Position numbers and translations under genes: made by a program. DNA of 63,793 nucleotides, the filler included, from Hausera hauseri (Eukaryota): assembly GCA_046269625.1 (NCBI GenBank). It is 11 parts of 11 records of this genome, joined end to end, with 100 filler letters (N's around TTAATTAATTAA, not from the genome) between each part and the next. Parts side by side here need not be neighbours in the genome. Positions count along the whole stretch, not along the records: positions 31,859 to 37,390 come from JBJURY010235184.1; 10 more parts are not named here. The stretch is one strand, 5' to 3'. The notes below the pieces were generated by a model. It saw nothing but the letters and a program-made list of their open reading frames with translations, did no database searches and was not told where the DNA came from. Positions 16,128-50,725 of the stretch are shown piece by piece (positions within the stretch are counted from its first letter, which is position 1; each line of letters opens with the position of its first letter).

Positions 16128-16189
16128 GTCCCACTAAGTTTAAAATGAACTGTAAATATTTACTGTAAATTTTTAATGAAACAGTTAAT

Positions 16190-25782: not shown

Positions 25783-25843
25783 GGTATCTACTGTTGCCGG
25801 ACTAATTGGCTCTCTGCATATGCATATCGGGGCGTGATTGTAG

Positions 25844-25946
25844 ATCCCCATACTCATGTGTTGTACCGAGTGTACTGACCAAAAGGGAACTGGAGGTTAG
25901 GAATATAACCAATGTTCCCTGAGGGAAGGGAACGAGGTACAACACA
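25844..25946 (+). repeat. DIRS internal complementary region / terminal repeats
   Basis: 25844-25867 is the exact reverse complement of 20423-20446. 25888-25946 is a 59-bp direct repeat (1 mismatch) of 20375-20433. Confidence 0.9.
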
Positions 25947-26277
25947 GGNNNNNNNNNNNNNNNNNNNNNNNNNNNNNNNNNNNNNNNNNNNNTTAATTAA
26001 TTAANNNNNNNNNNNNNNNNNNNNNNNNNNNNNNNNNNNNNNNNNNNNTGGTTAGGGGAATGCCTGATCAAGATTACAATAGTAAAGGTGACTCCTCAGA
26101 CCATCAAGCAAGTGATACAAACTAACGAGTCGAGATAAACGAGACATGTTGTAATCTGACAATGAAAGAAACTAATACTTATATCTAAATTTAAAGAAGA
26201 CTTTGAAGTGAAATGACATATGACAACCAAATAATATATTTTAAATTAACAAAGAGTTGTTCAAAACAGAAAACGCT

Positions 26278-26620
26278 TAACAATTGTTGTTCATACAAGC
26301 AAGCCACAATAAACAGTAATGGCCACACAATATAGTCATTGGTTGTCAATAATGAAGTCGATTATATTCAACAAGATGATGTGATTATCTTTTAATTTGT
26401 GAAACTAACATTTAGGGATAGTAAAATTTGAGAGGATCGAATACTTTGACGACGGTATGATGCATATACACAGCAATTCATTGTTCTCCCCATAACGATG
26501 AAGTTTGTATAGTGGCAATGAAACCACCACCAGATTGTGGTAAGTCACGCGACACACAGTCCAGTGGAAACACGCTTTGAAATTTCTCACCCAAGAGCAG
26601 TTTTCCGTAGTGACTGAGCT
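26278..26620 (-). pseudogene. Adenain-like cysteine protease
   Basis: FQSVFPLD..GGFIATIQTSSLWGEQ*IAVY..VFDPL..VEYN..QPMTILCGHYCLLWL (degraded GEHW / FD / Q..CG.YC motifs). Confidence 0.78.
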
Positions 26621-26711
26621 CAGTGGAGCTAAACGTAAAACGTGATATATGCGTAATAATAATAATGAATTACTTAATGGTATTAAGAAAAAGAGAGACA
26701 TTCGATTTTAT

Positions 26712-27912
26712 TTACACAATGACGGTTTCATTTTTCGTTATTTCCACTTCGGCATCAAATACGCCGTAAATGTACATCACGGTATACTTTTCCAGAGCTT
26801 TGGGAAGGTGAACCTCTAATCACAGGTTTTCCTGTTGAGTTAGTTGAGACTGTTCAACGTCATAATCTGGAGCCAAGACAAAGGAAAAGAATGGATAGGA
26901 GGACTTGAACAAGTCTATCTATATGCCACTGTTGATGTTTTTGTTCAGCAAGCCCATGTTATACACGACAAATTGCGTATATGTGCAAACATAATCGTGG
27001 GTCTCAATATTTTGCTTATACGTCTAAACGAAATCCGCATTTTTGCCCAAACTGATGTCATTCACATTGCCATTGGTAAATGTTTCTGAATCGGTGGTAT
27101 AACTGCCGGTTTGTTGAGCAGTCGATTGAAATGTGACAAGCATAAATTTCGTCAATCGCATATTGCTAAACAGCGCATCCTTATGAAACGATGGTGTAAA
27201 ACACGAGTTCGATGCGTTGAAATGGGTAACAGGCATTCTGTGTTTCCAAAACCAATCGATGTCCCATGAGCATAAATGGTTCTACCTTTACACAACGTAC
27301 GTATAATCGTGCTTGGGTAATTTTCAGTATGGGTTTGATATTTACAACTGCAGTTTTCAGGCAAAAGACATTGTCATTGCATTTGAGTCCAATCATGGCT
27401 TTAACACCAGGCAAAAGGTATTTCGGCTGATCGAAATAGTCAAAATACAGCGGTCCACACATGGTAAATGCTTTTGATTCTTCCACTCATTTCTGACGGT
27501 TTGCCACTGTAGCATCATATCCGATGGTTTTCGTCAAATGAGTCGTTTTCGTGTCTGTACTATAATTCAACGCCGTTTCAATGAGAGCTTTGATACTATA
27601 CACATTGGTATTGCCTTCAATTTTAACACTGTTCAGAGTCAGTGAAGCTTCCTGGAATAGTGTGAGGAAAATGTAATTGGCCGGTGTGACAGTGTCTGTT
27701 GCAGCGAGAACCGTTGATGCATCCTTTTTAGCAATAACTTTTACATACATTAGCGTATCGTTCAAATCCATATATTCATTGTCCGATGCTATTATATTGA
27801 ATTGAATGTCAATGTTGTTGTCAGTCGAAACAGAATCAACGGGTAGATTTCTTCAAATGTTGCTTTGTCAATAACGACTTGTGATGCGGCCTTTGGATTT
27901 TGCAGATGCCAT
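26712..27912 (-). pseudogene. Polinton major capsid (double jelly-roll, hexon-like) protein
   Basis: EYMDLNDTLMYVKV, ANYIFLTLFQ, YSIKALIETALNY, LYFDYFDQPKYLLPGV. Ends AEVEITKNETVIV*. Confidence 0.88.
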
Positions 27913-27919
27913 TTGTTTG

Positions 27920-28170
27920 TTAATCGAAAATTGTACAACGACGACGTTTGTTTATTGTTAAAAAGTTCGATGATTCTCTAAGTTTTCTCAAGCCACTGCT
28001 GGTGAAATGTTTTTGGACTGATTCAACGACTCCCAGTGCAGCGCTTTTTATTTCTGCCTAGGTGTTTTCCTTTAACGACGGTAAACTCGATTTGTTTTCA
28101 AGTAGCACATCTCGTGCTGTTTTTGCTGCCATGGCTCCAATACGTTTCAACACCGTAATTGGTCGTACAA
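27920..28170 (-). pseudogene. Small basic core-like protein upstream of the major capsid gene
   Basis: LKRIGAMAAKTARDVLLE... and a terminal KRRRCTIFD*. Confidence 0.55.
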
Positions 28171-28199
28171 ACAAAAGAGATTCTGGCTCACAGTTTATT

Positions 28200-28440
28200 A
28201 TTTTTAAATAGTAGTTGAGATGGTTCATTTGCCGTAACCCGATGGGTTGTGCTATAATGTATTTTCATATTGCCCTTTGGATGTCACCGGTGCGTAAGGA
28301 AAGTTAAATTCCCTTAGTGCAACCTACCATTGTCCAGATACATTTATCGGATTGTCCCTATCTACAATGTATTGACTGGCCTAATTGTTCTGACGAGTCG
28401 TCGGACAACTGTTGCTCGGTAACACCATGTAAAGACTCAT
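28200..28440 (-). pseudogene. Penton copy 2, N-terminal fragment
   Basis: MSLYMVLPSNSCPTTRQNN*ASQYIVDRDNPINVSGQW*VALREFNFP. Confidence 0.78.
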
Positions 28441-28469
28441 ATTATTGTAATGATAATAATAATGCCGTT

Positions 28470-29055
28470 TGTTTATTGTCGACGTCGAAAATGTAGCGTC
28501 AAATGTGTCGTGGACCCGTGCAGAAATTTAACGGGTTTCCAAAATTCATCTAGCATGTGCACCGAAATATTGTACACAACATTGTGAGATAACGATAAAT
28601 ACAAGGGCCGGGTGATATTGACGTGAGCCGTTTTGTCGGGTGTTTTGTACGTGTCAAAATCAAGTGTATCAGAGGCAATTAGTTGTTTGATTAAATGCTA
28701 CGTAGTGTCATGGTTTGTATATAGCAACAATTGCTCGACCGCTACCGTTTTAACCGAATTCATGTTTCGAAAAGCCCAGATTCCGTGCTAATAATTCATC
28801 GAAGGTAAAATATGTAACTATAGTATGTAGTGTAAACGAAATACGACCATCGACGTTTAATTCTTATGAATCTAGAGCCAACTTAGCTACTTCTCTCATA
28901 GATACACACAATTCTGTTTCCGATTCCAACAGTAAATCGTATCCCTTAGTATACGAGTAAAATGTTGATTTTGTCATTTACCAGTTTACCGTAATATCGG
29001 TTTAATGGGTTTAAAGAAGTTCAATTTTCTTTTACCAACTATGACACGTCCACAC
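28470..29055 (-). pseudogene. Penton copy 1, C-terminal fragment
   Basis: Nucleotide similarity to about 14980-15617; ends THLTLHFRRR. Confidence 0.75.
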
Positions 29056-29069
29056 GTATCCGTCGATTA

Positions 29070-29595
29070 AGTAGGCCGGTTGTGAGGAAATGCTTGTCGT
29101 GCAACATAATTGTGATAGTCTGATTACGGGGATTTTTAAACACTACCAATTAGTGTAAGTTCAGATTTCGTGTTTGATGCTGTTCGCCCTGATAGAATAT
29201 GTTTTCCGTAATGAAAATCACCACTACACCACGGTGTTGTGCAATTTTCTTAAACAGGTTGTTGAAGTCGGTTTGTTTCGTGGTTTCTTGGAATAAATCG
29301 TCAATGACAATAACGTCACTGCTGCGTAATCGTCCGGACCAGTTCTCATCAAACCCATCTGTTACAGTTATCGATTTCAAATTACAAAATTCTTGATGTA
29401 TCAGACCGGACTATCCATCATCATCATCATCATCACACCGGAACCCTGATGCCAGTAAATGTCACTGAATCGCTGTGATTGAAATATGCCACAGTAGTTT
29501 TGCAATAGTTTACAAAGTGTGTTTTACCACTTCCACTGTTGGTAGCAGAGCGTGATTTGTGCTCCGCATCGTGATTGGTCTTTCGAAGTATCCAT
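29070..29595 (-). pseudogene. Polinton packaging ATPase
   Basis: NSGSGKTHFV (Walker A), VIVIDDLFQE (Walker B), IAQHRGVVVIFITEN. Confidence 0.85.
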
Positions 29596-30149
29596 GTCTG
29601 TCTCCTTGTTTTCGGAACTTATTCATTCCGTTTGAATGTTGACAAAAGCGGGAACCTTATGTGAAATATGCACGATAAGGAAATACGGTGAAGTGAATAA
29701 AATGAAACATCGTGACTATCTCACAGAGGCGACGCAAAAATCAGGAGTTGTAATATCTTGCGCCTAGGGCGATAAATATTTAAAAAGAAAAGATAAAAAT
29801 GTCTATATTTCAAAACACGTAGAGAATAGACACCGACTGACAGAACCCGTGGTAACGGATTGGAGAGGAGAATACATCAGGAGATCCTTGTTTGAGACGA
29901 GTGATCTCAAGAAATTAAATGGATCGCAAGAATTCAAGAAATTCGAAGTTCAAAACTGCTGAACCTCGAGTTAAAAGGATATGTCGAGAACCAATACCAG
30001 CGGCGTGAAGTGGGAAAAGATATTGGAGTATTGCATACTGGAAGGAAATAAGTCACAAAATTTGCAGGAGTCGTCTAAGAAGGATGAAAGAGAAGAACTC
30101 AGCCTTAAAGATTTTGTGCAAGAAACAACAAAAAACAGAGAAGAGGAAA

Positions 30150-30377
30150 TTGACGATATTTCTTGAGACAATTTTGGGAAAAATAATTGCGATGTTAGTA
30201 AAGATGTCGGATGAAGTAGAGAAACTGAAGTCGGTTGTCGAATAAAGAGAAGAAATCCCGACAAACCAACAAAGGGTAATTTACAATGGAAAACAACTAA
30301 AGGATTGTCGGAAACTTAGTGAATATTATATTCATAAGGATTTCACTGTTCATTTGCAGTTACGGTTAAAAGGTGGG
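30150..30377 (+). pseudogene. Ubiquitin-like domain (76 codons, one internal TAA)
   Basis: [75 protein letters not shown] aligns gap-free to ubiquitin; 37/76 identical by hand count. Confidence 0.92.
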
Positions 30378-31473
30378 AGTGATTCAACTGTAGACGAACT
30401 GGAAGATAGGATATCTGAGCGACGTAAGTACATCAACGACCTTTCAGCGATTCGGAGGAAGTTAATGTATGTAAAACTGAATGATCATGAATACGAAATT
30501 TATCATAAAAATATGACTAGTCGTTTACCGAGCTTCAAGGGGAGTTGAGTATACTAGCCACTGCAGCTAGAAAGTTGAGAAAGAGGAGAACCTCACATTG
30601 TTAGAAAATGATATGGAAAAACTGGACAATCAGGACGAAAAAATCAACGCGATCATCTACGAGAGAAGCTCAAGAGAAAATAAGATGATGATCGCCAAAG
30701 GAAGGTCTGAAAAGGAGAAAACGGAAAGAGTAATGTTACCAAAGTTACAAATATTAGAGTTGCCGAAGTTTGGGGGGGCTAGTTACCGAATACGATAAAT
30801 GGAAAAAGACCTTTGACACTTGTATCCATAAAACTCCAATGTCGGAATTATATAAGCAACTGCAGCTGAATCAATGTTTGTATGGCAAGCCGAAAAAGCT
30901 GATTGAAAATTTCGACCTAACAGAAGAAGGTATAAAGCGTCCCTCGAGAAATTAGATTCCTATTATGGAGGTGAACAACGTTGTTATGCAGCGTTCATAA
31001 CCGACGTCATAAGATTTCGGGTAATAGAGGAAAAAAATATTAAATGGCTAGATAAATTCGTGGCGTTGCTAGAAGGAATAATTGTAAGACTGAGGAATCT
31101 AGGGAGAACGGAAGAACTTAGTGGAGGGCTATTGTATCAAAGCCTCGTGGAAAAGCTACCTGAGTCAATTGTGCTTCTATGGGAAAGGCGTGTTATCGAA
31201 AAGAAGTCGGAAAGGACCGTCTTGGAATTGAAGAACTGGATCGAGATAGAAGCGATAGTCAGGAGAAACACTATAGAGAGGGTAAGAGGAATCGAAGTTT
31301 TCAATACCAGTCAAGACGGTCGATATACATCGATAGAGGACGGAAGATCGTATTTTACGAAGAGATCACCGGTTGTAAATAGACAGAGTGGGAGCATGAA
31401 TAATAAAAGGAAAGATCAAAAGGAAATGCAGTCAAATCAATCCAAGACACAAATAGAAGATCGGTCCCAGAGG

Positions 31474-31620
31474 TGTTAGAGTTTTGATAAGAATGGTCAG
31501 TGCAAATTTGGAGAGAATCGCAAATACTTACACCAAACAAGTAAGGACGATCAAAGAAGAGAGTGTTGGTACTTCGAGAATGGAGAATGTAAGTATGGAG
31601 AAAACTGTAAATTCCGGCAT
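31474..31620 (+). pseudogene. Tandem CCCH zinc fingers
   Basis: C*SFDKNGQCKFGENRKYLH (degenerate) and CWYFENGECKYGENCKFRH (C-x7-C-x5-C-x3-H), in frame with ORF 31060-31479. Confidence 0.85.
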
Positions 31621-31858
31621 GGAAAAATTGGTAGCAAAGGAAAGAGCAAAGGCAGTTATTATAAGAAGGAGATAAGGCAAGGGACTGAAAAATTTTGCGA
31701 AAACATAGCAGGCAAGAAGAAAAAGAAAAAAATATCACGAACGATAAAAATTGAAGAANNNNNNNNNNNNNNNNNNNNNNNNNNNNNNNNNNNNNNNNNN
31801 NNTTAATTAATTAANNNNNNNNNNNNNNNNNNNNNNNNNNNNNNNNNNNNNNNNNNNN

Positions 31859-33888
31859 GATTCCAATTCGTGTTTCCATTTTAATAATATTTCCGGGGAC
31901 ACCTCTTCAGGCTGCCTCACATCGATTGCTTCAACAAACTTCCCTTCGGTACGTAATTTCAAGCTTTTATATAACTTCTCGGCGTATTGCTGTTCTTTCC
32001 CAGATATGTTGACTTGTTCACTAATCTGCTTGATCTTCTCTAAGTTTCGTTGTAATATTTCGGGCTCTAAACAATAAATTCTCATTTTCTTTAATTCGTT
32101 GGCGTTTTTCCATGAGCGTCGGATTTTCCACTTTTTCTAATTGAAATCGTCATTGTTGGCCGTTTCTTCCTCACTAACGGGAAGTGGGCAGATTTCTCTA
32201 ATTTTATTAATTGACTCTATCGGCTCCGCTACTCCGACAGGTGTGTATGAACCAATTTCTGGTGTATTCAAACTATACTCCGTGTCGCCTTCTTCAACGA
32301 CATTCGGGTTTTCCGTTTCTTCAATTTTCTCTCCGGTTATTTTGGAAAGTGAACGACTTCTACGTTTGGTTTTTAGTAAAGGGCTACGGCCTCTATTTTT
32401 CGTAATTTTGAGTATTAATAATTTCATAAATTCTTTTTCTGCTGTATGGTCCTCCGTGAGCTCAGCTATCTTTTGGACTGTGAGCTCATGCTTTGCGTCT
32501 AAATCTACTGTCGTCGATGTGCTTGGGTTATCAGATGGCTTATTACTTGTCGGAATACTCTTTTTCCGTGTCACATCACTTTGCTTAGGTGCTATTCCAT
32601 ATTCATATTTGGTTTCGGGTTCTGCTAAGCCGCGATATACCTCTAATAACCTTAACTTATCTCTGTATTCTCTTCTAGCCGTCAAAAATTGCAGGTTAGT
32701 AGTATCCGGCTAAGCATCTAGAAATTTTCTCAAATCATGTATGTCGATCATAGTGCCTGTATCTCCGCGGATGCCATACTTTTCTTCCATTTTCTCATTG
32801 GTTCTAATCATACTAGTCTTATTTGGTTCAGTAAATGAAACGTTACGCGGATTTGGACATGACCTTGAAATGTGTCCTTCTTTACTGCAAGTAAAGCAGA
32901 CTAAGTTTCCGTTTCTGCCGACTCTTTGTCGTCCGTCTTCGTTTACCGGTGACTTAGATCTATTTATACCTTTATTATATTGATTTGCCAAGTTTTGCGT
33001 ATTATTGGCATTTCTTCTGTTGTCACTATTTCGGCTATCGCTGTTTTGATTTGAGCCTTTATAATTTTCTCTATTCCTATCCCAGTTGGGTTCTGATCTG
33101 TTCGTATTAGAATAATTACCGCCTATACCATTTCTGTAACCGGCATTGTTGTTTCTATTCCCATAATTTCTGTTGCCCGTAAATTGTCTGTCATCTCTTC
33201 CACGATTATCATTACGATTCCTATCATTTCGGTCATTTCAATTGTTATTCCTATCGTTTCTATCATTATGTCTGGCGTATCTATCTAGTGCCATTTCTAA
33301 ATCTTGGGCTAATCGTAACGTTCCTTCAAAATTCTTGGGTCTAGCTAAAATCAGTTGTTTAATCAAGTCTCGTAACCAAATACCATTTATTAGTTGCGTT
33401 TTCATCATGACATCTAAATCCGACGGTGAGGCCTTCTCTGCGGCGTCGCGTTCTGCCTCCGTTTTGGCTTTAGCCACGTTGGCTATTCTCAATGTGCTTA
33501 TGTAACTATTAGCAAGTTTCTTCAACGCAAATGCAAATTGGGTTACCGATTCACCATTTTGCTGTACTCGGTTTTGAAATGCCATAAGCTTTTGTTGCGG
33601 CGTTACGGTTGGCAACAATTTACGATTTAATGCTCCTACCATGGAGGACCAAGATTTCTTTTCCTCATTAGTGAGTTCACTATAGGCATCAGCGACTAAA
33701 TTTTTCAAATACAACTACAATCGCTTAATCGTTACTTCAGGAGTCAGACTAGCACCTTCCGCGTGCAACTTATAAGTTCTCAAAAATTCCTTGAGCCCAT
33801 CTGGGTCTCCGTCATATGCTAGCAGGTTTAGAGAGTCGAACGTGAAAATGTCCAGTTTCTGTGCTACGGGTGGATTATCTGCTGCCAT
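31859..33888 (-). pseudogene. gag: Gypsy gag (capsid, N/R-rich tract, CCHC knuckle) running into domain X
   Basis: MAADNPP..YDGDPDGLKEFL..RVQQNGESVTQFA..CFTCSKEGHISRSC. A few in-frame stops. Confidence 0.9.
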
Positions 33889-34267
33889 ATAATTTACGTT
33901 ATTTGGCTCTAAATTTGCTTTATTTACTCTAGGTTTCTCGAGTGGAACTTTAAACTGTTTATCTTGCGCAACAACGTCTAGTTTATTTCTATTCTCAGAA
34001 TTTGAACGTTTTCTACCTTTTCTGTTTCTCTGTATATATTTCTAGGCGTTTCACGTATAGGTGAATTGTCTTTTAATATACGATTTATTCCTGACTTATC
34101 AGTGTTTGTTCTCAATTAAATTTTGTTTACTTATCCCCGTAAAATAGCCTATATACCCGAAATTTAAATTCCGATTCTGAATAAATCAAGTTACTCGGTG
34201 TAATGGCGCTGTTCGCCGGTATGTAATTATTTAACTCTGATAAGTAAAGTCTAGCGAGGTACAGACA

Positions 34268-34284
34268 GTCCTGTAGGGTCGCCA
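34268..34284 (-). promoter_or_regulatory. Primer-binding site (tRNA-Arg-like)
   Basis: TGGCGACCCTACAGGAC, 2 nt after the LTR 3' end ...TATAACA. tRNA identity is from memory of Arg tRNA 3' ends (..GGTCGCCA). Confidence 0.8.
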
Positions 34285-34286
34285 AA

Positions 34287-35112
34287 TGTTATATATTGGG
34301 GTGGCCCTTATACAATCTCCCACTATATAACAATAGTTACACTTGAAGTTAATGTTTACGCAGGTAAGGTCTACCGTAATCGTGTAGACAGAATGTACCT
34401 TAACCAATTTAAATATTTAGTAATGCGTGTACTGCTTGCGGTCCTCTGCAAATGTTATGAAAATCTCCTCTTACCTATACAATTTACCGTGAAATTTAAG
34501 ACCTTAGTGTCGTCGAATTACCCTTAAGGGGCACTGAAAAACTATGTAAGAATTTTAGAATAAACAATATATTTATACAAAAACAATTACTCAATGCTTC
34601 ACATATCAATCAAATTGAAGTCAGTAGTTTTCACTGAATTTGTGCTCTGCGGTTTCTAGAAAAACTTCATCTTCTCGATAATCTAAGAGTTCGCTTTCAC
34701 TTCTCTAAGGAAGTCAATAGGCTTCAATAGCTTTAGGTCAAGGGCAACTTAGAGATCTCACAAGTCTTCAAATAACTTCACAAAAATTCACAAAAGTTTT
34801 AATAGTTCTAAAATCTGTCTGCTTATATACTAATTCAACTGCGTAGGCGACTGATTACTCTTGTAATTATAATCAGTTTTAACTGAATTTTTCGGTATTT
34901 TCTGATTTAAAAATTAATATCAATTCAATGCTTTCTCCAAAAATTCTGTAAAATATACCAATTTATTACTAAATACCTTCTTTAATTTTGTACAAATTCC
35001 TAATTTCGTTCAATAACGAAAAATATTATAAATTAACAAATATCTACAATTTGTTGATTATAATGCTATCTACAAATTGAACGTCTTCTCAATTATGGAC
35101 GTCTTTACAACA
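34287..35112 (-). repeat. Long terminal repeat (826 bp) of the gag-X element
   Basis: TGTTGTA...TATAACA termini; preceded by a PPT and followed by a PBS; TATA-like GTATATAAGC at 34821-34830. Confidence 0.88.
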
Positions 35113-37360
35113 TTTCTCCTCCCTGAACGGCATCCTCGGATGTGCCCATTGCGTCAGGAGAGGTGCCGCGGCGACGAGGGTCTCGTAGTAATTCCATTCG
35201 CTGTCTTAAACTGGGTCCGGAACTTGTACTTGTTTGATCTTCTTCTCTAGTATTTGTTTCTAATTCATAACTGTAATGGGGCCTTATGCGGACTACACGG
35301 GTATAACTACCGTTTGAAAAATATTTAAGTTCAGTTGCCTCGGCTCTACACACCGGGCAGGTAGTTTTGCCATTATCTAGGGTCCATTTTTCCAAGCAAT
35401 CTCTGCAATATTTGTGTCGACAATCACGGTTATCTAAAATGACATATCCTTGGTTGAGATTTGCTTCACATACTGGGCATTCATTTTCTTCTTTGCCCCA
35501 TTTCTCATCATCTAAATCTACCCTTATTATAAGCTCTATGGGTTCGAATATGAGACCATCCTTATCTTGATATATGTAACCATGGATTCTTTTTTGTTTG
35601 GGATTTACTGAACTCTTCCTGGGGTCACATCCTACTGGTACTAAAATCCAATCGGCGATAGTATCTCGATCTAAATCGGGAATTTCGCCATCCGTTTTAT
35701 ATTTTTGATACTGTCTTTTCAACAAAGCTTTCATTTGTTTATCCACTGGCACTGTTAGCTTTCCATTTCTCTTTGATAGGAAAACTGGCGCGATGTATTT
35801 TCCTATTTTAGGGTTTTCCCAGATGTAGGTATTTTCATATACTTCTCGAGCTGGTGTGGTCTTCACGAAAAACATTGCTTCTTTGATCGTCTGGCGGCTA
35901 TAGTACTCGGTTGTTATTAACATCCTTGGGTGATCTTTAGTTGTCGCAAAGTGAACATCTTCTTGGGAGTTTCGTTTTCTAAGAATGTTAACTTCCGTAA
36001 ACAGTTGTTGAAATCCACTTTCTGGGTTCTTATGTTTATATGATGATCTCTTGGGTTTTTCTAGACTTGTTATCTGGTTGTCTTCGGACGTTGTTGGCCT
36101 TTCGGGTTCTTCGTTTGTTTTATCGGGTTGATTCTCTTGAACTTGGTTCGGGTTTATTCCTTTATTCTTCTTTTTGAATAAATAATCGTAGAGGGATAAT
36201 TTTCTTTTGATCGGAGAAATTTGTGTTTCAGCTTTCTGTTTCTTCGACGGAATTTTGGGTACTTTGAATATCTCAGCTGTTTCTATTTTCTTGCTTATGG
36301 GTTTGATTTCTGGAATCGGTTTGACGTAAGAACTATAACTGGTACTTGGTACTTCTGTACATAGTTGGCTTGGTTTTTGAATGATTATTTTGATATTATC
36401 TCGTCCCATCGGTTCCACAATTCTGCATGGGGAATATGAACGATACTGCTTCCGATACCTTTTATTTATATTTTCCGGTTCGGTTGTACTTCGTAGATTT
36501 TGTTCTGGATTATTAGGTGTCCACTCATGGTCCCATTTTAAAGCTACGTATATGTCGCGTAAGTAGCGAGTACGTTGACTTGCAGTTAGCAGTTTACTAA
36601 TCTTAACATGTTCGCTGTTCATGGCATCGACCATTAATTTGAAATAGGCGTCCATAACTTTTGGTGCGGGGTAATTTCTTTCTCGTAATATTCGTTTACT
36701 TTGTTCAGCGACTACTGGGTGTGATCCTATCTCCCGTATTCCTACGATGGTCGATATGGGTATTTCTAATAATTCAATAATATTATCGATGCGGTATCCT
36801 GTTATGATATATCCATATAAACAATGTTCTAATTCAGATTGAACAAGCTTGATGTCTCTGCCTTTCGAGAGTGTTTCCTTGCGAATTCCTGTCGTATCAT
36901 AGTATGTTTCGCGAACTCGTTTTCTTGGGCTGATAACTGTACAATATACCTCTGTTCCGTTCGTTTCTCGAACTGACACTTCCATTGGGATTTTCTGTGC
37001 ATTGTCTGCTTCTCCACAATTAATCGCTATGATTCTGGTATTTCTGTCATCCTTCACTAGTCTATACGATTGTAGGAATGTGTCCAAATCTTTTTCTGAT
37101 GGTTGTTGGTAGAACTTCAAAGGTGGTAATTTGACATATGGGTAACCGTCATGCGTTACTTCGAACATTATTTTTACGGGAAGGGTGGCTACTCTGAACT
37201 CTAACTCGTAATGTTGCAAATCTTGGCTACGGAAGCTAAGTGTACTGAATCTGTATTGTCTTCCATCGTTGGTGTTCCATTCTTGGTCTTTGAATCGATA
37301 ATATATCTCACCGTCTGCTAGGTGGATGTAAATTGTCTGTCTACTCCCGTATGCGATCAT
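35105..37360 (-). CDS. 3'-terminal ORF of the LTR element: inactive DEDDh (REX4/ISG20-like) exonuclease domain plus C3HC4 RING finger (5'-partial)
   Basis: 751 aa, frame open to the contig end at 37390. RING CPVC-x15-CRH-x2-C-x2-C-x12-CPVC at 35348-35479; exonuclease-like fold at aa ~109-275. Stop codon lies inside the LTR. Confidence 0.85.
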   Translation of the reverse strand: MIAYGSRQTIYIHLADGEIYYRFKDQEWNTNDGRQYRFSTLSFRSQDLQHYELEFRVATLPVKIMFEVTHDGYPYVKLPPLKFYQQPSEKDLDTFLQSYRLVKDDRNTRIIAINCGEADNAQKIPMEVSVRETNGTEVYCTVISPRKRVRETYYDTTGIRKETLSKGRDIKLVQSELEHCLYGYIITGYRIDNIIELLEIPISTIVGIREIGSHPVVAEQSKRILRERNYPAPKVMDAYFKLMVDAMNSEHVKISKLLTASQRTRYLRDIYVALKWDHEWTPNNPEQNLRSTTEPENINKRYRKQYRSYSPCRIVEPMGRDNIKIIIQKPSQLCTEVPSTSYSSYVKPIPEIKPISKKIETAEIFKVPKIPSKKQKAETQISPIKRKLSLYDYLFKKKNKGINPNQVQENQPDKTNEEPERPTTSEDNQITSLEKPKRSSYKHKNPESGFQQLFTEVNILRKRNSQEDVHFATTKDHPRMLITTEYYSRQTIKEAMFFVKTTPAREVYENTYIWENPKIGKYIAPVFLSKRNGKLTVPVDKQMKALLKRQYQKYKTDGEIPDLDRDTIADWILVPVGCDPRKSSVNPKQKRIHGYIYQDKDGLIFEPIELIIRVDLDDEKWGKEENECPVCEANLNQGYVILDNRDCRHKYCRDCLEKWTLDNGKTTCPVCRAEATELKYFSNGSYTRVVRIRPHYSYELETNTREEDQTSTSSGPSLRQRMELLRDPRRRGTSPDAMGTSEDAVQGGEML
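35113..35124 (-). promoter_or_regulatory. Polypurine tract
   Basis: AGGGAGGAGAAA directly before the LTR TG. Confidence 0.85.
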
Positions 37361-37789
37361 CTGTTTAAGTGAGTACGCTCGGGCATCTTTNNNNNNNNNN
37401 NNNNNNNNNNNNNNNNNNNNNNNNNNNNNNNNNNTTAATTAATTAANNNNNNNNNNNNNNNNNNNNNNNNNNNNNNNNNNNNNNNNNNNNGAAACAATTA
37501 AAGGAAAAGACATGTTTGGTTTATTTTAGGGAGGTTTTTTTTTCTTAAAAACAAGTTTTGAGATTCCTCCCACCGTGCTTGATATCTGAGCTCTTTTGAG
37601 ACGTTCGGGCTGTGGTACAGCGTCAGACGGTTTGGCAGGAGCTCTGAGGTTTGTGGTTATTTGCTGGCAGAGCGGACTTCAGGAACGAGGTGGTCTGTTA
37701 TCAGTGGACACACACAGCTGCCTCTTTCTGCCGAGTCCAACTGATGTTTACCGATGCCAATTTTAGACAAGATAAGCACAAGTCCACAA

Positions 37790-40700
37790 GGACTTGAAGT
37801 GTGGAAAAGGGAAACAAAACCCCGGTAGCCGACGCAGACGAAAAGGAATTTATGGAACTGCTATTACTTAAAATCACGAAAAATAGAGGCCATAGCCTAT
37901 CATTAAAACGGAAACGTAAATATTGTTCAAGATCACCAATGATTAAAGAAAAATTAGAAAAAAGAAACTGAAATCGCTGCAGAAAGCTACGAAGAACTTG
38001 GTCTAAACACACCAGAACTTGTTTAATTTACACATGTTGGAATAGAAGAATTAACAGAATCGGAAAATGAAATAAACGATATATGTCCACTACCCGCTAG
38101 TGAAGAAGAAGCAGAACAAACCTTGAAGTTTGATCGGAAAAATAGAAAATCAGACGATCGTGGAAAAATGCCGATGAATTGAAATGGATGAGAATTCACT
38201 GTCACGAACCAGAACTATTACGACAAAACCTAAAAATACTTAAACAGATCTCAAAACAAATAGATATCTCATATAAAGAACAATAATTTGCTGAAAAGTT
38301 GTATAAAAGTTTGAAATTATCAGTGAAGGGAAACTCAGTGAATCAATCGATTTAGGACAACCCGAAGTAGTACCACCAAAATGTTAGCAAAATGGAAATA
38401 TGAATTAGGTTCATGGATAAGAAGTGGAGTTGAATTTTCAAAAACATGGAATAGAATTGAGGATGGCGTCGATGTGAAAGTGGCTAAAGCTCAGACGTTA
38501 TAAACCACGTTAGAGACCACTCCGAAATTAAAAGGAGTAAAGCGTAATTTAGAACAGGCAATGGAAGGAATTAGGTTTGTAATGGTTAATCGACCTATAA
38601 AGAAACCGGTTAAAGAACGGAATAAAATCAAATCAGAAATATTGGGTATAGATCCAGTAGATATTCCTCTCTTAATGGAAATGTTAAAATTGCATCCTCT
38701 GCACATAATCAATATGCAAATATAGAGAATCGCATTAAAACTGTAAACCAAAAACGATCACCAATTTATAGTTTAAGAAACAGAATAATGCATATGAAAA
38801 ACGAAGCGACTCAAAATTTGATTAAAGTTTGCATCTTGGAATTTGATGAGTACAATGATGAATTTAATTATGCCAACCAGATCATAAGTTTTATAAAAGG
38901 CCCAGACGAATTAAAAAATGCTTATAAAACGCTAGACATAGCAATACTGCCGGAACCCGTAATAGCTAAGCAACTAAAAGAATGTCCGAATTAATATTAA
39001 GACTGAGTCAGGTAGTGAAAAATCGCATACAAGGGTTCACAGAAAGTGAAACGATAGTGAAACAAGAATTAGGAGAAATTTCACAAAATTTAGATACAAT
39101 GTGAACAGAAGTAGATATCCTGACGCAATTCAATACACTACAACAACTAAAAATTAGGGACAAGAACAAAGAGATGGTGTTAATGAACGAAATGTATAAA
39201 ATGATTGAAGGAACCTATTTTCAGATAAGACGAAACATTACTCATGGCCTCTATCCGAAATTAAGGAATGTCAGTTAGAAGAAGTCCAACAATTAGCTGA
39301 AAAATCCATAATCTCGATCCAAGAAGTAAAACTATTAGTCATCTGCACGGACTATTAACTGTTAATAGAAGAAGCACAGAAATTTCTACCGGACCCTCAT
39401 AAATGGATCCCAGGATTGGATCAAAAGTGGCATGCTGAATTAGTAGAGATAATGCGAGATCATCGACTTACTTTCGAGAAAACTAGTTTCATAAAGAAGT
39501 TAATTGAAGAAATCGATCCAGATTTAAGCCTATCAAATGGACGCATAACTGTCATCCCTTACAAATTAACAGAAACCAATCCCGTAAAAGGAATAACGGA
39601 CGATAAATTCCAGGATACCTCATCAAAAGGCATTTATAGACCAAAGGAAGGTGAAGCTTTTAGACAGTATCTCGCTTTTCCGCGTCAGCATACACATGAA
39701 TTAAGTCGAGCCATGGCTGCAGTAGTAGGCAAAACTTGCTACAAAGCAAAATGGGAATCTTCACTTGGTGCAAACCATTATCAAGGAGCTACCACTTAAA
39801 TACTATACAAAATTTGTGGAAGAGTTTTAATTTTTGGTAAAGCCGCATTTAGATTTTTAGCGGTCTATTTCTTCGTACAATTAATCAAAGTCGTAATCCA
39901 CGCAGTTATAAATGGATACAAAATATTTACATTTACTGGTTTTTCATGCAAAATTTTGACTGCAATTATAACATCGTTTGGAAAGTAGGTGGAAAACTGA
40001 CGCAGTACGACATGTTGGTTATTATAATCGAAAATGACAAAGAAGACCGAAAAAAACGATTAGGATGAGATGCCATCTCCAGAACAAACATACATAAAAC
40101 GTATTCTGTCATAAAGCCACAATTACCCATGTTGCCTCCGACGAAACAATGAGTTTTACGGAAAATGCACGAAAATAGGGAAAACTCTGCACTCTATCTC
40201 AGAAAGTCAGTGGATGACCACAAAATATTATATTCTCAAAGAATACTCCAAAACAAAGAAACCAGATCAATAGCCTGGGGAAATCAAAGAATGCAAACTT
40301 TTCGAAATCTAGAGCCATATACGAATAATCAAGAATCACTAATTAGTAGCCATGAAGCAGGGGATACGAACGTCACAAACAACGAACTGTATACGAATGG
40401 TGAAATGAAACAACTAACTGAAAAATTAATGACCTCTCCAAAAGTCAGAATTAACGGCCATAAAATATCGATGATTAAATAACCCAAAGTTGCATGGAAT
40501 TGTTACGGAACAATTATAGAAGGAAGGCTTTTTATCAAAGTCAGTATTGAAGACTGGGAAGTTTATGCCTTAATCGACGAAGGTTCTGAAACTTCGTACA
40601 TCAAAAGTGACAGTTCCGCAGACGTTAAGGAAACAATTGTATCCACTATCAGTGAAAGACTGGAAGTAGAGGAGCCTTTGGACAAATGTCAGGAACGATG

Positions 40701-41120
40701 TTTAAATAAATCCAGAAGTTCACATTATGGTACAATCTTTCCATCACGAATGTGTAGTAATGGAATAATTAACCGACGATGTAGTATTAAGTTGTGATTT
40801 ACTGAGGCAATTACCGAACGTGTCGGTAGATTTTCACGCTGGTAAATTAAAATGAGTAAAAAGAGTAAAACCTAAGGAATATAAATATCCGGAGAAGTAT
40901 GTATTCCAGTAGACTAGGAGATTGTTAATATTCGCACAAATCTGTGAGGATGATGGTAAACCAGTGTATTTTGAGCACATGGAAACGTTGAATCCGAATG
41001 TCGTATTTAGTAATGTACTAACAAGTGTAACATCAGGTCGTTTGACGATCAGATTAACGAATAAGGCACCAACTCCAGTTAAACTACACGCCAAAACTAC
41101 TCTTGTCCAAACAAGAATTT
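37790..41120 (+). mobile_element. Internally deleted copy of the gag-X / glycoprotein / protease element
   Basis: 37790-39523 matches domain X (contigs 4 and 7). 39524-41120 matches the glycoprotein C-terminus, TM, protease (ALIDEGS) and spacer of contig 2. Confidence 0.88.
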
Positions 41121-41533
41121 AAATTTCTCCGAAAATGTCACCGATGCTTCACCCTCAAAGTTGCATAATTTCCATCTTCCATTTTTCAATACAACTTTTA
41201 CCGTTTTTGTATGGATTCTAGCCTCAAACATACTATTTTGAAAGAAAATCAAGACAAACTCAAGGAAAAGGACATGAAGATATCGAAAGACAATTGCATT
41301 AAATGGTTTGAACATGCGGATAACGGCACAGAGCACAAACCACTCTCTTCTACCATATGAAGAATTTGGTAGGACACGGTTATGACAATGGAGCCAATAA
41401 TAACACACACGCAGTTATTTTGCGCAAAAATAANNNNNNNNNNNNNNNNNNNNNNNNNNNNNNNNNNNNNNNNNNNNTTAATTAATTAANNNNNNNNNNN
41501 NNNNNNNNNNNNNNNNNNNNNNNNNNNNNNNNN

Positions 41534-41608
<75 letters not shown>
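41534..41608 (+). repeat. (CA)n microsatellite
   Basis: Pure CA run at the contig start. Confidence 0.97.
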
Positions 41609-41609
<1 letters not shown>

Positions 41610-42566
41610 AACTGCTACAGCAATCACTTCCACACACATACCCAGGCACACGCGCACACACCCTGAGACCACGTTCATACACACACAGAGAAAAAGGGAA
41701 AAAAATCTACCCTTCGACCCCCACCCACGCTGACACAGCGAGAGAGGGAATCACTCCCCTCCTTTTACCCTTTATCTTCCACACACCACCATGCAGAGGC
41801 ACGCACCCACACAAACCCAGACACACACAGACTCCAGCAGCCCCCGTCCGTCCTTCTTGCACTACCCCGACTGTCCGGAGGTCCCACACGCCTCACAGAA
41901 CAACAAACACGGCACAACAAAAGCCAAAGTAACACACCCTAAACTATGAAGGTCCCAGACCATTCAGAATTTGGTTAAAAATTAACTACGTCCCGGACGC
42001 GTGCATATTCCCCCTCAGTAAACTAAAAATTCCGTCAATTTCGGGTGCCACAACCCTCCCGCGGGATGACGTTGCCCCGAGCTGGGTTCCCGGAACCCTT
42101 ACACCCCACTCGTCAGTGAGGTGGTTTCTCGCCACTGCGCAGCAAGGGAAATGCACTTTCTTCAGCGAGTTCCAAACTCCTGGCATACGACCCCAGGTCG
42201 AGTACTACCTAATAAATCACAAAAACACTGCGCATACACGAAGCAAAGCCGTGAGAAACACACACACGCACACGCCCGGAGAGCGCTGTGCGCAGCCGAT
42301 CTGAATAGACGCAACCCCCATGTCAGAAGTACCACTAATCAGCGCAATCTAGCTTAAACAAACCATCCTCATTTCCGGAGAAGGCTGCCCGCGCACCCGC
42401 AGAGGACAAAATAAAATAAAATTTGGTTTACCGGCCGAAAAGCTGAGTGATTCGGACCTCCCAAGGCCAGCAGGCATCAGCTTACCTCAAAAACGAAGGG
42501 CCCTCTCCTCTGCGCGCGCACCGCAACCCACTCGAATCCAAATGCCACAGCAGGCGCGCTCAGCCG

Positions 42567-42583
42567 CACGTCCGGGGTCACCA
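42567..42583 (-). promoter_or_regulatory. Primer-binding site, tRNA-Trp-like (ERV-B)
   Basis: TGGTGACCCCGGACGTG versus the Trp PBS TGGTGACCCCGACGTG; 2 nt after the LTR end. Confidence 0.82.
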
Positions 42584-42585
42584 TT

Positions 42586-43623
42586 TGAAGTGGACAGTGC
42601 ACTTTGTGTTCAAAACGGCGGAGACGTCACCTTATATAAAAAGATTTATTTGACAGAGGGTTACAAATATTCAGATAACATACGAACCAGATTAATATAT
42701 GCATATATGGAGCATGAAGACCCGACCTTAATATGGAGAAGTTCTGACCCGAATGCTCACCAGAACTTGTTGGTTATGGAGTTTTATCACTGCTTTTAGA
42801 AGCCTAGCTCCCTGATTGGTTAGAGGTTTAGGTTCGGAGCCTCTCTGCCCGTCAAGGCCGTTCCTAGCTACATTCCAGAGATAAAGTTTTATGACTCTAC
42901 TGAGCTAAGCTCTTTGTTCCAAGTTAGTGTATTATTCTGCCTTATTGGCCTAGAAAGAATACGTAGGTTAAGACTGTTATAATAATTAAGGTCTGTTAAT
43001 TATTATTATTTGCTATTTTATATTTATGTGTTGTTAATTGATAAATCCTGACTAATATAATTGTTTTTCAGTTCTGTTGGAGCTACCCTCCTCCAGTGCA
43101 GCTGTGAGCTTTGATAGACAACACACACATGAAGAGTTTTCCTTGAGGAACCAAGAATGTGATTCTGTGTTCCTAATCTATGGTTCAGTCTGATATTTAG
43201 TAACTTAACTTTATTCTCTGGTAGTTTACTGTTATATTAATATTTCTAATGTATTAGTGTGAAGATTAAAACTTGTGTGAGCTCATCTAAAATGCAGCCT
43301 GAAATTAAACAAGTTCAATGTTAATTATTATTAACATAAGGACCTGAGAGTTTTAATTTACCTGTATTGAAAGGAATACTCTTCTCGCAAGAGTAGTCAG
43401 TGTCTTACCTGTAGTATTGCTTGTCTGAATGGCTTGTAATTAAGTAAAATGTAAATTTATAAGAGTATATCTAGCTCCAGTGAGATTATAGATTACCATG
43501 CTAATTCATTGTAGTTCTATAGTCATAGTGAAACCCTTTTAAGAAAGACACGTACACACTTTATAACATGACATTTCAACGATGAATAGAAATATACAAG
43601 GAAATAAAATATGAAATCCTTCA
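42586..43623 (-). repeat. LTR of ERV-B (~1038 bp)
   Basis: TGAAG...CTTCA termini; PPT AAGAGAGGGA at 43625-43634; CCAAT near 42815 and AATAAA at 42644-42649 on the minus strand. Confidence 0.78.
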
Positions 43624-43776
43624 ATCCCTCTCTTGGTCTATCAAAAGATAGACCAACTACCTAAAGGAGGCTACAGATATTCTTGTCTCAGCCAATCGCA
43701 GGTGATCTCGGTCCGATGATGAGGAGTCCTCGCTGGCCCGCATCACAGGACACACAGCCCCGTCCCCACGACTGCA

Positions 43777-44490
43777 TCAGACCGAATCATACGAGAGACA
43801 GCAACCTTTGCACATGGTGCAACGCACCCCATCAAGACACAAAAAAAGAACCAAAACAGCCAGAGGAGGGGTAACAAGTTCAAGTGCAATCACAGCCTGA
43901 CTCCAAAACCCACCTGTAAACCACGACAACAACTCCAACGATGTTGCAGGAGGATCCTCTGCCTTAGCCGTTCGAACCCCTCTCAGCTGCGACATGGCCT
44001 CAGTACCACCCCAAACCAGGTTACAAGCACAACACACCTCCCCTCCAATAACCTCACTCTCGTTATACCTAGACAACGTTAATAGATACAAAACCATTCT
44101 ATTACATAAAACCACCACTCTCAGAGTGGACAATATGACCTAAACGCCCTCCAGCGCTATAAAAGTCGAATTAATAAACATATCGAAGCAGTAATCCTAA
44201 GTCTCAACCTGTAAAAGGGGTTTACCCATACCAGCCCAAAGAAAAGATGAAAGCATGACCTTTCCCCTGTCGTCCAGTGCTTAAAATTAGTAGGCACGTC
44301 CAAACCTAAATTGAATCATGCGGCCTAATGCCAACAGCCCCCGTCGCCTGAGTTAACGAGCCATTACCTAAAAATACCAGAAACTATTTGTCTGTGACTG
44401 CCACAGGTGCACAGAAACCTGACCAATTAGAGGAAAGAGTTAAAAGCACTGCATACCCACACAACCATAAATAATAACCAGAAAACTCCA
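43777..44490 (-). pseudogene. env: Degenerate gamma-type env (SU end and TM subunit) of ERV-B
   Basis: SNWSGFCAPV, HWTTGE, FINST, LSTLRVVVLCNRMVLYLLT, IGGEVCC, LLSWFTGGFW; collinear with the intact env at 52063-53829. Confidence 0.8.
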
Positions 44491-47400
44491 TCACCAAAAC
44501 CAGAAACCCCATTATCACTACTACCCTCTCTCGGTCAACATCCTATTTGATATGAGAACCATGTTTGGTATCACACCACCCTGAAAATGAGAATCAATTA
44601 TGTGTAAACTTGAATTCAACCGTACATGCAGGAAAAACGTCAGCCCCACATAACCTGAAAGAATAATATCACAGAACAAATGAACAATACACCCACACAC
44701 TGTAAATTCTCCGACTTGATCCAGGAATCAATTCCTATAAACCTGCAAAGCAAAATTAATCCAACATGCATGCATAGTAAAAATCTAACCCAGTAAAAGT
44801 TCATCTAATCCCACTCATGTCCAAACAGCCCCCTGACCCCTTTAAAAGCTCTGATTGTTCCTTCAGAATGACTCAAAGAAAAAGACAAACACTCATATTA
44901 AACATTTTTCCCCAGCAGGTCTTCGGTTCTTCTGTTCTTGAGCTTGCGGTGGGAGCCCTTGTTCGTCTACAAGGGTCCTGGTGCTCAACGGTATACGGCC
45001 CGCGGAGTTATCTTCGTGTAAAAAGTCTCTTAACCTATATCAGTCTGTTTAAACGTTCTAATTGACGTGTGTGTAATGGATCACAAACTATATCAGTGTG
45101 ACGCGTTTTCTTTGCTTCACGGTCAGGGCTGGGAATCTTCTTCCTTCCCCGTTCCACCTGACTGACCGACTGTAGGCAGAGCGGAGACTCCTTTCTCCAA
45201 TTTTGCTACTGCCTTTTTTCAACAAGGGGCAAAGAGTGAGCTCCCACGAAGGTCTATCACCCTCTTTCAGGTGAGATGGGGAGCTTCACACCTGTCATTC
45301 CAGCAGATCTGCCTCCACCTGACCCAGCGAGTGGATGAACTCCTCAGCAGGTGCCCACTGGCTGGTGTGATGTTCTCTCACTCCACCACCAGGTGGGGTC
45401 CTTTCCCTCTTTTGAGCAGGACCCAGTCTGGTGTGTGGTCCCTAGTCAAGTCTCCCCATTCAGATGTTTTCCCCCTGTTGAGAAAAGGCTGGACACCAAA
45501 GCTTGCGAATTGTTAAACACACTGTCTGGCCTATTTTATAGTTTTATCTATGGGATCCCTGGCCCCTGTTGGGGCCTGGAAAAGCCTAACTGTACTTCCT
45601 TCATATTAAAAATTCTTAAGTCTAGCACAACCTGCTGGTCCTCATTTCCACTGGTAGGGTGTTAATGGTCATACTAAAAATTCAGTTAAATTGCTATTCC
45701 TACATTCAGCTATAAACCTGAAATTGAAATGATGTACATACTGGACTTCTCCAGAAATACCTGTGTACTCCCGTTCCCTCTCCACCATTTCAAGCATTTG
45801 CCTCCAGTGAATCTACCTAAAATAAGCAAAGTTAACCATAACACAACAACAATACACAATACATCATAATGAGTAATTACCTATACTGGTCCCTTCTTCG
45901 AGGCTGTGGAAGGAACGTCATTAACGCATGCGCAGAAAACCTTGAAGTGCCCTATAAACTTAAAAGCCTTAGACAACTGACATATAACTCTTCCCTCCAG
46001 GTACCTGTTCCAGAGAGAACACAAGGAAAAATCCTACTCCTGAGCCTGTTGCTCAGCCGTGAAACATGTGGTTAAAAATACTTTGTTCATGAAACCTTTT
46101 AATATCCAAATTAACCTATTTTATGTCAAGTCCAGTCAAGTCAGTCAAGTGTGTTTAAAATACAGAACCACCACTTTTTCTAATTAACCTTTGATCACAT
46201 CCACTTCAGGAGGCTGTTTCAGATCCTGCTGTCTATTTTAGGGTTATTCGTTTGGGGCGTCCCCCTTTTTGACCGGTGAAGTTCCTGGAATCTGGAAACA
46301 AGAGAAGATAAATACTTATGTTAACCTATACAAGAGCAATATCGATTCTAGGCTTCTGATTTCTTTCACTTTTCAAATGTCGATGTGGTTTTCCCAACTG
46401 TTCCTTGTTGTTCTCTTAAATATACATAACTTACGAAGTCATTTTAGATATATCTATTATTATTTAATTTAATTAATGCTCTACACCTTTTATGAACTGT
46501 TTGTTTTCTTAAATATAACATGCTCTAAACCATGTGTGAACTGTTTCCTGCTAAGAACACCCTTCAACCTCCCCCCTTATTGAAACAGTGTCCTGCTTCA
46601 AAACCCTACATCCATCTGGCTATAAAATACTAACACACGGTTTGAGAAATAGTTTCAGAAATATAAAAATAATCTGGTGTAGTCGTACCATACCAACTAC
46701 AGTTAATCAATCTAGGTGTCACTCCTATAGCTAACTATAACCCAAATTCTTATATAAGTTCTCTAAGGAGTTAACCATTAAATAAATCTCATCCTTTGTT
46801 GCAAACCAGACCTTCCACATGAGCTCGTTGAAGGCAAAGACCATCATGTATCTTTAATTTATCAGACCTTACCCAACTCCATCTAAATCAGGCCTCAGGT
46901 ACAGGTTTCACCTGTGTCCAACCTGTAAAAATGAAAAGTTAAAAACAATCTATCACTAAGGAGTGGGGAGCGTCATTATAGGTTCTGATGTACTAAAACA
47001 ATTTTCATCCCAGAGCCCACGGAACAGGGGCAATCAGTCCAGCACCCCCACAGTGGAACTCCTGTGTCGTGATATGGCACCTGTCCTAAAGTGAGCCTAT
47101 GTGTGCGTTCATTATCAAGGCCAACCGTAGTTTTGATCAAGACCCATGGTTATCGGATGTCTGACATAGACCAAATGTGGAGTAGCTCCTCAGCCAGACT
47201 GTAGTAGTTGTTATTGACATTGGACCGATGGATCCTCAGCTTGTTTCTCTGTAAGTGATCTCCTTTGGTCTGGAGAACAGTTTAGCTTTGTGCAGTAGTT
47301 CATGGCTCAGCATACAGTGAGACTTGACTTGATGTCTCCACTGTTGACAAATCCAGGACCCCCATCTGGACAGTTCAGTTTGTTTCTTGACTGACAGATC

Positions 47401-48420
47401 TTTGCTTTGATGCATATCGCAAAGTCATTGTGCTTGGCTGACAAGTTCTTTGTTGTTGTGCCAGTGGTTTCTTTGAAAAGTCACATCGGTCGGTCAGTTT
47501 CCCAGATCCAGCTTTCAGCGCCCACCTGAACACATCTGGTTTCAGAGCGACAACCAACAACCTTAAGGCACTTGATGCAAAACTCAGATGGATGCTGTAT
47601 ATATCTGAACTCTCTGTATGTGTTTGTGGGCCTAGCTAGACTCACCTCCCCTGTTCCATAGCTCTGCCTTCACAGGTTGCTGAGAAGAAAAAATAATACA
47701 ATCCAATTATTAAAAGTCAGACTCAAAGTTAATTATCTGTTAACAAATTCTATCCTGGGACCACAGTGTTTACCTCCAACCGTCATCCTGCATCCTGGCT
47801 TTGCACAACGGATTTTTCATTATTATTATTATTATTATTACTATTATTTTTAAAGCTCAATTACATAAGAGTGAAAACCTTCATTTAACACTGCAAAATC
47901 CAATTCTCTACACCCACTACATAAAATATTATTTTAAACAATGTCCTCAATGTTTTAAAAGGATCAGGCAGCATGATTAAATGAACCACTGCAAATTCAT
48001 CCAGATGATAGCCATGTTTGTTCCCTGCATTCTAAACAAAATTTTGTAATTCAATTCAATTAAGACTATGTATGCAAGTCCAAGACATCACAAAGACCAA
48101 TTAGCACTGCACAATCAACGTCTACATGCACCTTTGTTCACAAAGCACAACTTCATTGCTAGAATTGTTATTTTCACCTAAATCTCAAAGTTCAGGTAGC
48201 TCTTATAAGGAAACAGTTCCTAAACTCTAAACAACATTTTCAATACATGATGAACTCCTTTAAACTGCCTAATTTAACCCAAGCGTTACAAGTTCTCTTA
48301 AAAACATTAATTAAATTTAAAGACTAGCTTCATATTCAAGTTTAAGAAGAAAAATTTGGCTAATTTGTTTACTACGTGTCATCCAGAAATGCTTTAACTT
48401 AATTTGACCTGTTTATTTTT

Positions 48421-50721: not shown

Positions 50722-50725
50722 ATTT

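Follow-up and report, generated by a model that had tools for sequence, protein, structure and literature searches.

The gene analysed here encodes a protein with a RING finger and lies in a stretch of 63,793 nucleotides of the Hausera hauseri assembly GCA_046269625.1, hereafter the window, which comprises 11 short contigs separated by N spacers. The gene is located on the contig at 31859-37390 (approximately 5.5 kb). We are highly confident that it is encoded by a retrotransposon with long terminal repeats (LTRs) and that it is under selection. Our best explanation is that a multi-copy Gypsy-type LTR retrotransposon carries it as an accessory gene, the product of which is likely an RNA-targeted ubiquitin ligase acting on a host RNA-surveillance or silencing factor; taken as a whole, we give this explanation roughly an even chance of being right.

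On the minus strand, the contig exhibits, in order, an open frame (37390-35108), a polypurine tract (PPT), a single LTR (35112-34287), a primer binding site (PBS; 34284-34268) and gag. The 5' end of the open reading frame (ORF) is truncated by the contig edge (37390), and its stop codon is at 35107-35105. As the LTR begins at 35112, the frame crosses the PPT and LTR bases 6-8 serve as its stop codon, exactly where the initial annotation of this DNA had placed it. The protein, P0001, is described below by its residue numbers (aa, amino acids) and by its identity to its relative P0002, together with the elements that overlap the end of the ORF.

35105..37390, minus strand: accessory 3' ORF encoding P0001 (at least 761 aa), already open at the contig edge; P0002 is a full-length relative
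37091..37390, minus strand: aa 1-100, a beta-rich N-terminal domain not assigned to a family and carrying a conserved I-H-x3-G motif; 51% identity to P0002
36536..37051, minus strand: exonuclease domain of the ISG20/REXO4 DEDDh type without catalytic residues, aa ~114-285, assigned from profile matches
35951..36460, minus strand: basic low-complexity linker, probably disordered; net charge +14, 25% identity to P0002
35495..35950, minus strand: domain X, aa 481-632, of unknown family; 46% identity to P0002
35348..35479, minus strand: C3HC4 RING finger with V640, W669 and P679; the linchpin R682 lies one codon past the motif
35255..35338, minus strand: conserved post-RING extension, aa 685-712; 50% identity to P0002
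35108..35254, minus strand: tail without constraint, which traverses the pre-LTR cassette and the PPT; aa 713-752 are 30% identical to P0002
35113..35169, minus strand: conserved pre-LTR cassette, including the PPT (35113-35124, 12 purines), which directly abuts the LTR
34287..35112, minus strand: single LTR of 826 bp, with TG..CA ends and a 4-base exact terminal inverted match

The RING finger previously recognised at 35348-35479 is genuine. It exceeds the Pfam cutoffs of both zf-C3HC4 (30.9 bits against 21, E 2.5e-7) and zf-RING_2 (35.7 against 27.3), it is the sole C3HC4 match in the six frames of the whole window, and the motif was found in none of 200,000 shuffled P0001 proteins. The zinc ligands C638, C641, C657, H659, C662, C665, C678 and C681 exhibit the C3HC4 spacing and are conserved in P0002, the RING of which scores 30.8 bits with zf-C3HC4. 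In RING E3 ligases, a hydrophobic residue in loop 1 and a proline in loop 2 are at positions that contact the ubiquitin-conjugating enzyme (E2). The E2-contact set, comprising V640, W669, P679 and R682, is present in both P0001 and P0002. In the accessible part of one source, the tryptophan of the helix is an E2 contact and the arginine following the last cysteine is the linchpin required for ubiquitin transfer (PMC9954413). With these residues in place, the RING is predicted, with good confidence, to be an active E3 ubiquitin ligase. The structural model of the RING is of moderate quality (pLDDT, the predicted local distance difference test, of 59-68), and the leading Foldseek rows are RING proteins, none of them at an E-value of 0.001 or better. 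When domain X and the RING were modelled with AlphaFold, the RING part alone exceeded a pLDDT of 50, with domain X under 50; full P0001, modelled from the two-sequence alignment, reached 28.5.

The assignment of the gene to the element, and not to a flanking host locus, agrees with the initial annotation and relies on P0002 and on the copies. When residues 1-630 were compared with 5.8 billion proteins, a single protein was returned among 3,868 candidates. This protein, P0002 (870 aa, E 5.7e-130, about 39-41% identical), exhibits its own RING and the same domain layout. Its last eight residues are the same as those of P0001, which in the window are encoded by the PPT and the start of the LTR, so we infer that P0002 lies at the same PPT/LTR junction. 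Two public sequencing runs of differently labelled organisms also contain this stretch, with 9,024 and 577 contigs aligned to the 5.5-kb contig; these are mostly less than 95% alike and cover 30 of 30 bins in both runs. The gene is thus not the single-copy spliced host gene that had been considered as a refutation.

With regard to the RING-PPT-LTR junction, which had been expected in other copies, the outcome is mixed: the cassette is joined to the ORF in several run contigs, but many elements share the cassette only. Twelve of 15 joints (15 of 17 are listed) connect the cassette with 35243-35457, seven of them with at least 31 bases on the short side, and joints at such likeness may arise from other repeats. 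The summed contig depth is 35,000-120,000 over the last ~65 bases (35105-35169), compared with 340-9,800 in the ORF bins. At 35169, 58 contigs of run X1 begin to diverge on the upstream side, and 76 end their match after the first LTR bases (35104). As the cassette is shared while the upstream part diverges, the RING gene is best regarded as the cargo of a subfamily. The elements that share only the cassette would either lack the ORF or carry one too distant to align.

The differences between copies indicate that the RING is under purifying selection. The counts were made on the best-supported 40 of 201 copy differences, minus three in the LTR. In 35300-35720, 25 of 31 differences are synonymous, where a fraction of 0.29 would be expected (p 4e-9, pN/pS ~0.1), and within the RING itself this applies to 16 of the 19 listed differences. 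Two differences touch ligand codons, both silently, and none alters a zinc ligand; three additional ORF differences taken from run contigs are all synonymous. In the tail (35108-35299), only two of the six listed differences are synonymous, so at the protein level the read-through into the PPT is not selected. It is best understood as a frame that lacks a stop of its own and enters a conserved cis element. Block by block, the identity between P0001 and P0002 is 51% for the N-terminal domain, 46% for the nuclease, 25% for the linker, 46% for domain X, 71% for the RING and 30% for the tail. The RING is thus the best-conserved block (71% over aa 636-684, versus 46-51% for the other folded domains).

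These results bear directly on the possibility that the ORF is a passenger, i.e. a piece of host mRNA of no benefit, recently captured by a process like LTR-mediated retroposition. Captures of this kind are common among animals, according to the accessible part of PMC5131818. Nevertheless, the strong synonymous excess contradicts this explanation, P0002 retains the frame and all domains at ~41% identity, and a host protein with the same architecture was not found among 1.84 billion representative proteins. Together, these points make a passenger scarcely credible.

The remaining features of the contig are those of a Ty3/gypsy element, the hallmarks found being the TG..CA LTR, the PPT before it, the tRNA PBS after it and a gag with a CCHC knuckle.

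34268..34284, minus strand: PBS resembling tRNA-Arg(UCG/UCU); 8 of 12 bases are those of the tRNA end in the accessible part of the PMC13524379 supplement
31859..33888, minus strand: gag with a long C-terminal extension, the frame being cut by the edge of the 5.5-kb contig

In the gag frame, zf-CCHC is over the Pfam cutoff and Retrotrans_gag is weak, below the cutoff. This frame is interrupted by in-frame stops at 33717, 33240, 32712 and 32139, i.e. four in 676 codons, versus none in the 761 codons of the accessory ORF (p 0.049 under equal rates); at least two of the four gag stops are absent from most aligned run contigs. The imbalance would be expected if the host had co-opted this copy, keeping the RING gene while the remaining element decays. 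However, the p-value is marginal. In addition, the contig carries one LTR only, with gag downstream of it, which is a permuted or tandem layout. This order, 3' end, LTR and 5' end, has three possible sources, namely a tandem pair of copies, collapse of the assembly through the LTR, and a circle with one LTR; the contig may merge two different copies. The ORF is also multi-copy and selected across copies, and P0002 retains the end encoded by the PPT and LTR. Host co-option is accordingly highly improbable.

A second copy of the ORF, the PBS or the cassette was not found window-wide. The hairpin predicted before the LTR is not significant (z -1.8; 12 of 200 shuffles were equally good), an Rfam search of the contig gave no match, and tRNA genes are absent. 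Since the six-frame Pfam scan of the LTR gave no match either, it lends no support to host-gene cargo inside the LTR. The depth in the LTR interior (34634-34818) is very low, at 79 compared with more than 1,000 nearby. Identity with Troyka was rejected, as that element has CG..CG ends in the accessible text of PMC12440569.

The dead exonuclease domain suggested by the initial annotation is real and ties P0001 to a protein family. A two-sequence, RING-free profile matched DnaQ (E 4.6e-5) and the PolC exonuclease (E 1.7e-4). Against 1.84 billion representative proteins, it retrieved 22 proteins, comprising P0002, 15 proteins with the beta domain and the exonuclease, and six with the exonuclease only. 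We aligned P0001 and P0002 with the 15 beta-domain/exonuclease relatives, and the profile of these 17 members matched ISG20L2 (E 3.8e-27), SDN1 (E 1.2e-17) and ISG20 (E 4.5e-15); the domain is therefore of the DEDDh ISG20/REXO4 type. The Atlas leads for DEDDh homology lie at 0.84-0.89. Pfam RNase_T was matched by eight of the 17 aligned members, and P0001 alone gave no RNase_T match. All five catalytic columns (D-E-D-H-D) are replaced in both P0001 and P0002, whereas the catalytic set is intact in 10 of the 15 beta-domain relatives (P0005, P0009-P0011, P0014-P0016, P0018, P0020 and P0022), which form an unnamed family of 450-680 aa. The nuclease remains 46% identical between P0001 and P0002 despite the five replacements, which fits a binding role. 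In the N-terminal domain, H23 is conserved in 16 of the 17 members, and G27 and P89 in 15. Pfam and PDB sequence searches gave no match for this domain, and they do not support an oxygenase- or cupin-like barrel. Domain X is also without a Pfam match; it has no match in the exonuclease relatives and is seen only in P0001 and P0002.

Neither a RING nor domain X was found in the 21 other family proteins, of which P0004 and P0008 stop inside the nuclease. The absence of the RING is not firm for all relatives because these two are truncated and several contigs barely exceed the length of the gene. The tree unites P0001, P0002 and P0004 in one group, with support of 100/100. Support for a cluster of the dead members is weak (74/56 to 74/91), and long branches come together there, so that the deeper order and the number of catalysis losses that it suggests are tentative. 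The simplest history starts from a family of exonuclease accessory proteins, one lineage of which lost catalysis and acquired domain X and the RING. The exonuclease relatives may themselves be element-borne; a search of viral, metagenome and prokaryote contigs, by protein or by the PPT-cassette pattern, yielded no loci.

Based on these observations, the following mechanism can be proposed. The ORF would be expressed from a spliced or subgenomic RNA, and the protein would enter the nucleus through the basic motifs of the linker. One of these, at 36185-36208, is a basic-hydrophobic motif that the alignment shows to be kept in the otherwise divergent linkers of P0001 and P0002, and is a candidate nuclear localisation signal (NLS) or docking motif. 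The dead nuclease and the beta domain would grip RNA, or an RNA-bound protein, without cutting. The RING would then activate an E2 and ubiquitinate a host surveillance or silencing factor on the element RNA, and this tagging would protect the RNA of the element. The parts of this scheme are not equally probable. That the dead nuclease does the targeting could equally well be right or wrong, and a host defence factor as the target is somewhat less than an even prospect. The most specific version, in which an ISG20/REXO4-type nuclease has been turned into the RNA-recognition module of the element's RING ligase, i.e. an RNA-guided degrader of host proteins for RNA surveillance or silencing, is doubtful.

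Several points weigh against this explanation. P0002 is the only other full-length RING-bearing protein found, run X1 is perhaps close to the source sample, and pol and env are absent from the contig; the sharing of the cassette alone by many elements, the possible origin of the joints in other repeats and the selection counts made on part of the copy differences, all mentioned above, belong here as well. At least three degenerate relatives (P0006, P0012 and P0013) are without a RING, some of them perhaps cut short, which indicates that a ligase is not needed for a dead nuclease to be maintained. Finally, domain X adjoins the RING and the nuclease does not, so domain X could be the substrate receptor.

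The dead nuclease and the basic motifs are also compatible with a factor similar to Rev or CERV, which would bind unspliced element RNA and aid its processing or export, the RING serving as a docking surface or to control self-turnover. CERV, encoded by Cer1 of C. elegans, is described in the accessible part of PMC10309623 as an accessory protein that resides in the nucleus, is required for the export of genomic RNA and has a candidate NLS and an enzyme-like domain without catalysis, and P0001 likewise combines a pseudo-enzyme with basic motifs. However, the residues for E2 activation are all conserved, the linchpin arginine among them, and mere docking would not need this set. The same part of that source reports no obvious CERV homologues outside nematodes, and our searches never pointed to CERV. 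We consider this alternative unlikely.

Retroviral budding uses ubiquitin and the endosomal sorting complexes required for transport (ESCRT). The RING could therefore, in principle, ubiquitinate the Gag or Env of the element, or a trafficking factor, for assembly or budding of an element that bears an envelope, and the related contigs do suggest a family of the GAG-ENV-POL order, its glycoprotein being of the chuvirus/gB type. Nevertheless, P0001 has no membrane segment (its hydropathy maximum over 19 residues is 1.28), it carries NLS-like basic motifs, and the link to env is indirect, which makes an assembly ligase quite improbable.

That link is provided by other contigs of the window. The gag extension shows 67-68% DNA identity to the contigs 15850-20153 and 37491-41433. 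The latter continues into a glycoprotein and a protease matching the contig 4698-11525, in which a chuvirus/gB-type glycoprotein (Monjiviricetes_fusion, E 4e-29) lies upstream of the protease, the reverse transcriptase, the RNase H and the integrase. These similarities suggest that the element of the RING gene belongs to a GAG-ENV-POL gypsy family, pol and env being linked to it only through 37491-41433. This contig is a decayed copy: the gag extension runs straight into the chuvirus-like glycoprotein, of which the C-terminal half is present, and the protease comes next. The arrangement suggests a member of the family from which an internal segment near 39527 was deleted. In two gypsy contigs with env, at 4698-5660 and 2-691, the frame that follows the integrase enters a signal-peptide-like hydrophobic stretch and more coding sequence; this is possibly a second glycoprotein, with weak Pfam matches.

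The window probably contains DNA of more than one origin. Nine contigs, including the gypsy ones, are not depleted in CpG (0.93-1.32), in contrast to those carrying a DIRS-like element (20254-25948; 0.74) and an endogenous retrovirus (ERV) with a class I env (41534-54794; 0.59), which exhibit a vertebrate-type depletion. This contrast makes an invertebrate host with vertebrate contamination likely, and the DIRS and ERV contigs are possibly fish contamination in an invertebrate assembly. The ERV contig also contains an array of ~60-bp tandem repeats at 50141-50483. The contigs 11626-15749, which has an integrase core, and 26049-31758 share ~1 kb at 71-83% identity. The former appears to be Polinton-like. 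A BEL-type DUF1759 frame is present at 30907-31476.

Few animal retrotransposons are known to bring along means of their own for countering host control. HIV and other retroviruses mostly rely on ligases taken over from the host, whereas the present element seems to encode a RING that is complete. The copy described here, intact and under selection, provides a compact protein for direct assay, and the active and dead exonuclease relatives provide a natural series from an enzyme to a binding module and then to the gain of a ligase. If its substrate were identified, a host factor directed against transposons would become known in a group of animals that has been little studied.

Among known systems, herpesvirus ICP0 and baculovirus IE2/PE38 are viral RING E3 ligases, and the comparison with them made in the initial annotation stands for the generic RING: in each case, a C3HC4 RING is found in a selfish genome, with a possible anti-defence role. 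The likeness does not extend further. Homology to ICP0 or IE2 outside the RING was found neither among the 22 hits of the RING-free profile nor among PDB hits, the Foldseek rows being weak and the model poor outside the RING. The RING of ICP0 is N-terminal, and we know of no nuclease-fold partner of ICP0/IE2-type ligases. If our explanation is correct, P0001 would be functionally similar to ICP0, yet assembled from a dead nuclease. Compared with ISG20, ISG20L2, REXO4 and SDN1, P0001 belongs to the same fold family, but its D-E-D-H-D residues are replaced and it adds the N-terminal domain, domain X and the RING.

With regard to LTR elements, Juno and Vesta of bdelloid rotifers encode a DEDDy exonuclease as ORF3 and thus also have a DEDD-superfamily exonuclease as an extra 3' ORF. 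In the accessible text of PMC5408684, this enzyme is RNase D-like with intact catalytic residues and a RING is not mentioned, whereas P0001 is of the DEDDh type, dead and fused to a RING. The giant planarian gypsy element Burro/GYPSM1 exhibits env between gag and pol, as well as MATH, BIR and SUMO-like domains, and is thus also a Gypsy element with extra domains linked to ubiquitination and apoptosis. However, these domains are mostly within a polyprotein of ~4,900 aa, the part of PMC6431247 available describes neither a C3HC4 ligase nor a pseudo-nuclease, and its "RING" is an AIR1 motif hit, the same review describing CCHC knuckles in Gag. CERV is similar to P0001 in being an accessory protein of an LTR element with a dead enzyme-like domain. 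It is G-protein-like, unlike the nuclease-like P0001, and in the accessible part of PMC10309623 RNA export is demonstrated and a RING finger is absent, the rings mentioned being oligomers. GAG-ENV-POL errantiviruses with an HSV/gB-type ENV occur in nematodes, bryozoans and flatworms (PMC13524379, in part), and the related contigs resemble them in their gag extension, chuvirus-like glycoprotein, protease and pol. In contrast, the accessible main text of that study contains no RING, exonuclease or ubiquitin, and the contig 31859-37390 is linked to env and pol indirectly. A RING accessory gene was not seen in the accessible parts of PMC11089739, PMC8672886, PMC12786077 and PMC6338049. In the literature available in part, we found no description of an LTR element in which a pseudo-nuclease is fused to a RING, one that Repbase or subscription papers could contain. 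Extra ORFs, exonuclease ORF3s and ubiquitin-related domains are already known in LTR elements; what is new here is an unbroken copy, a measure of the selection acting on it and the active-site background provided by its family.

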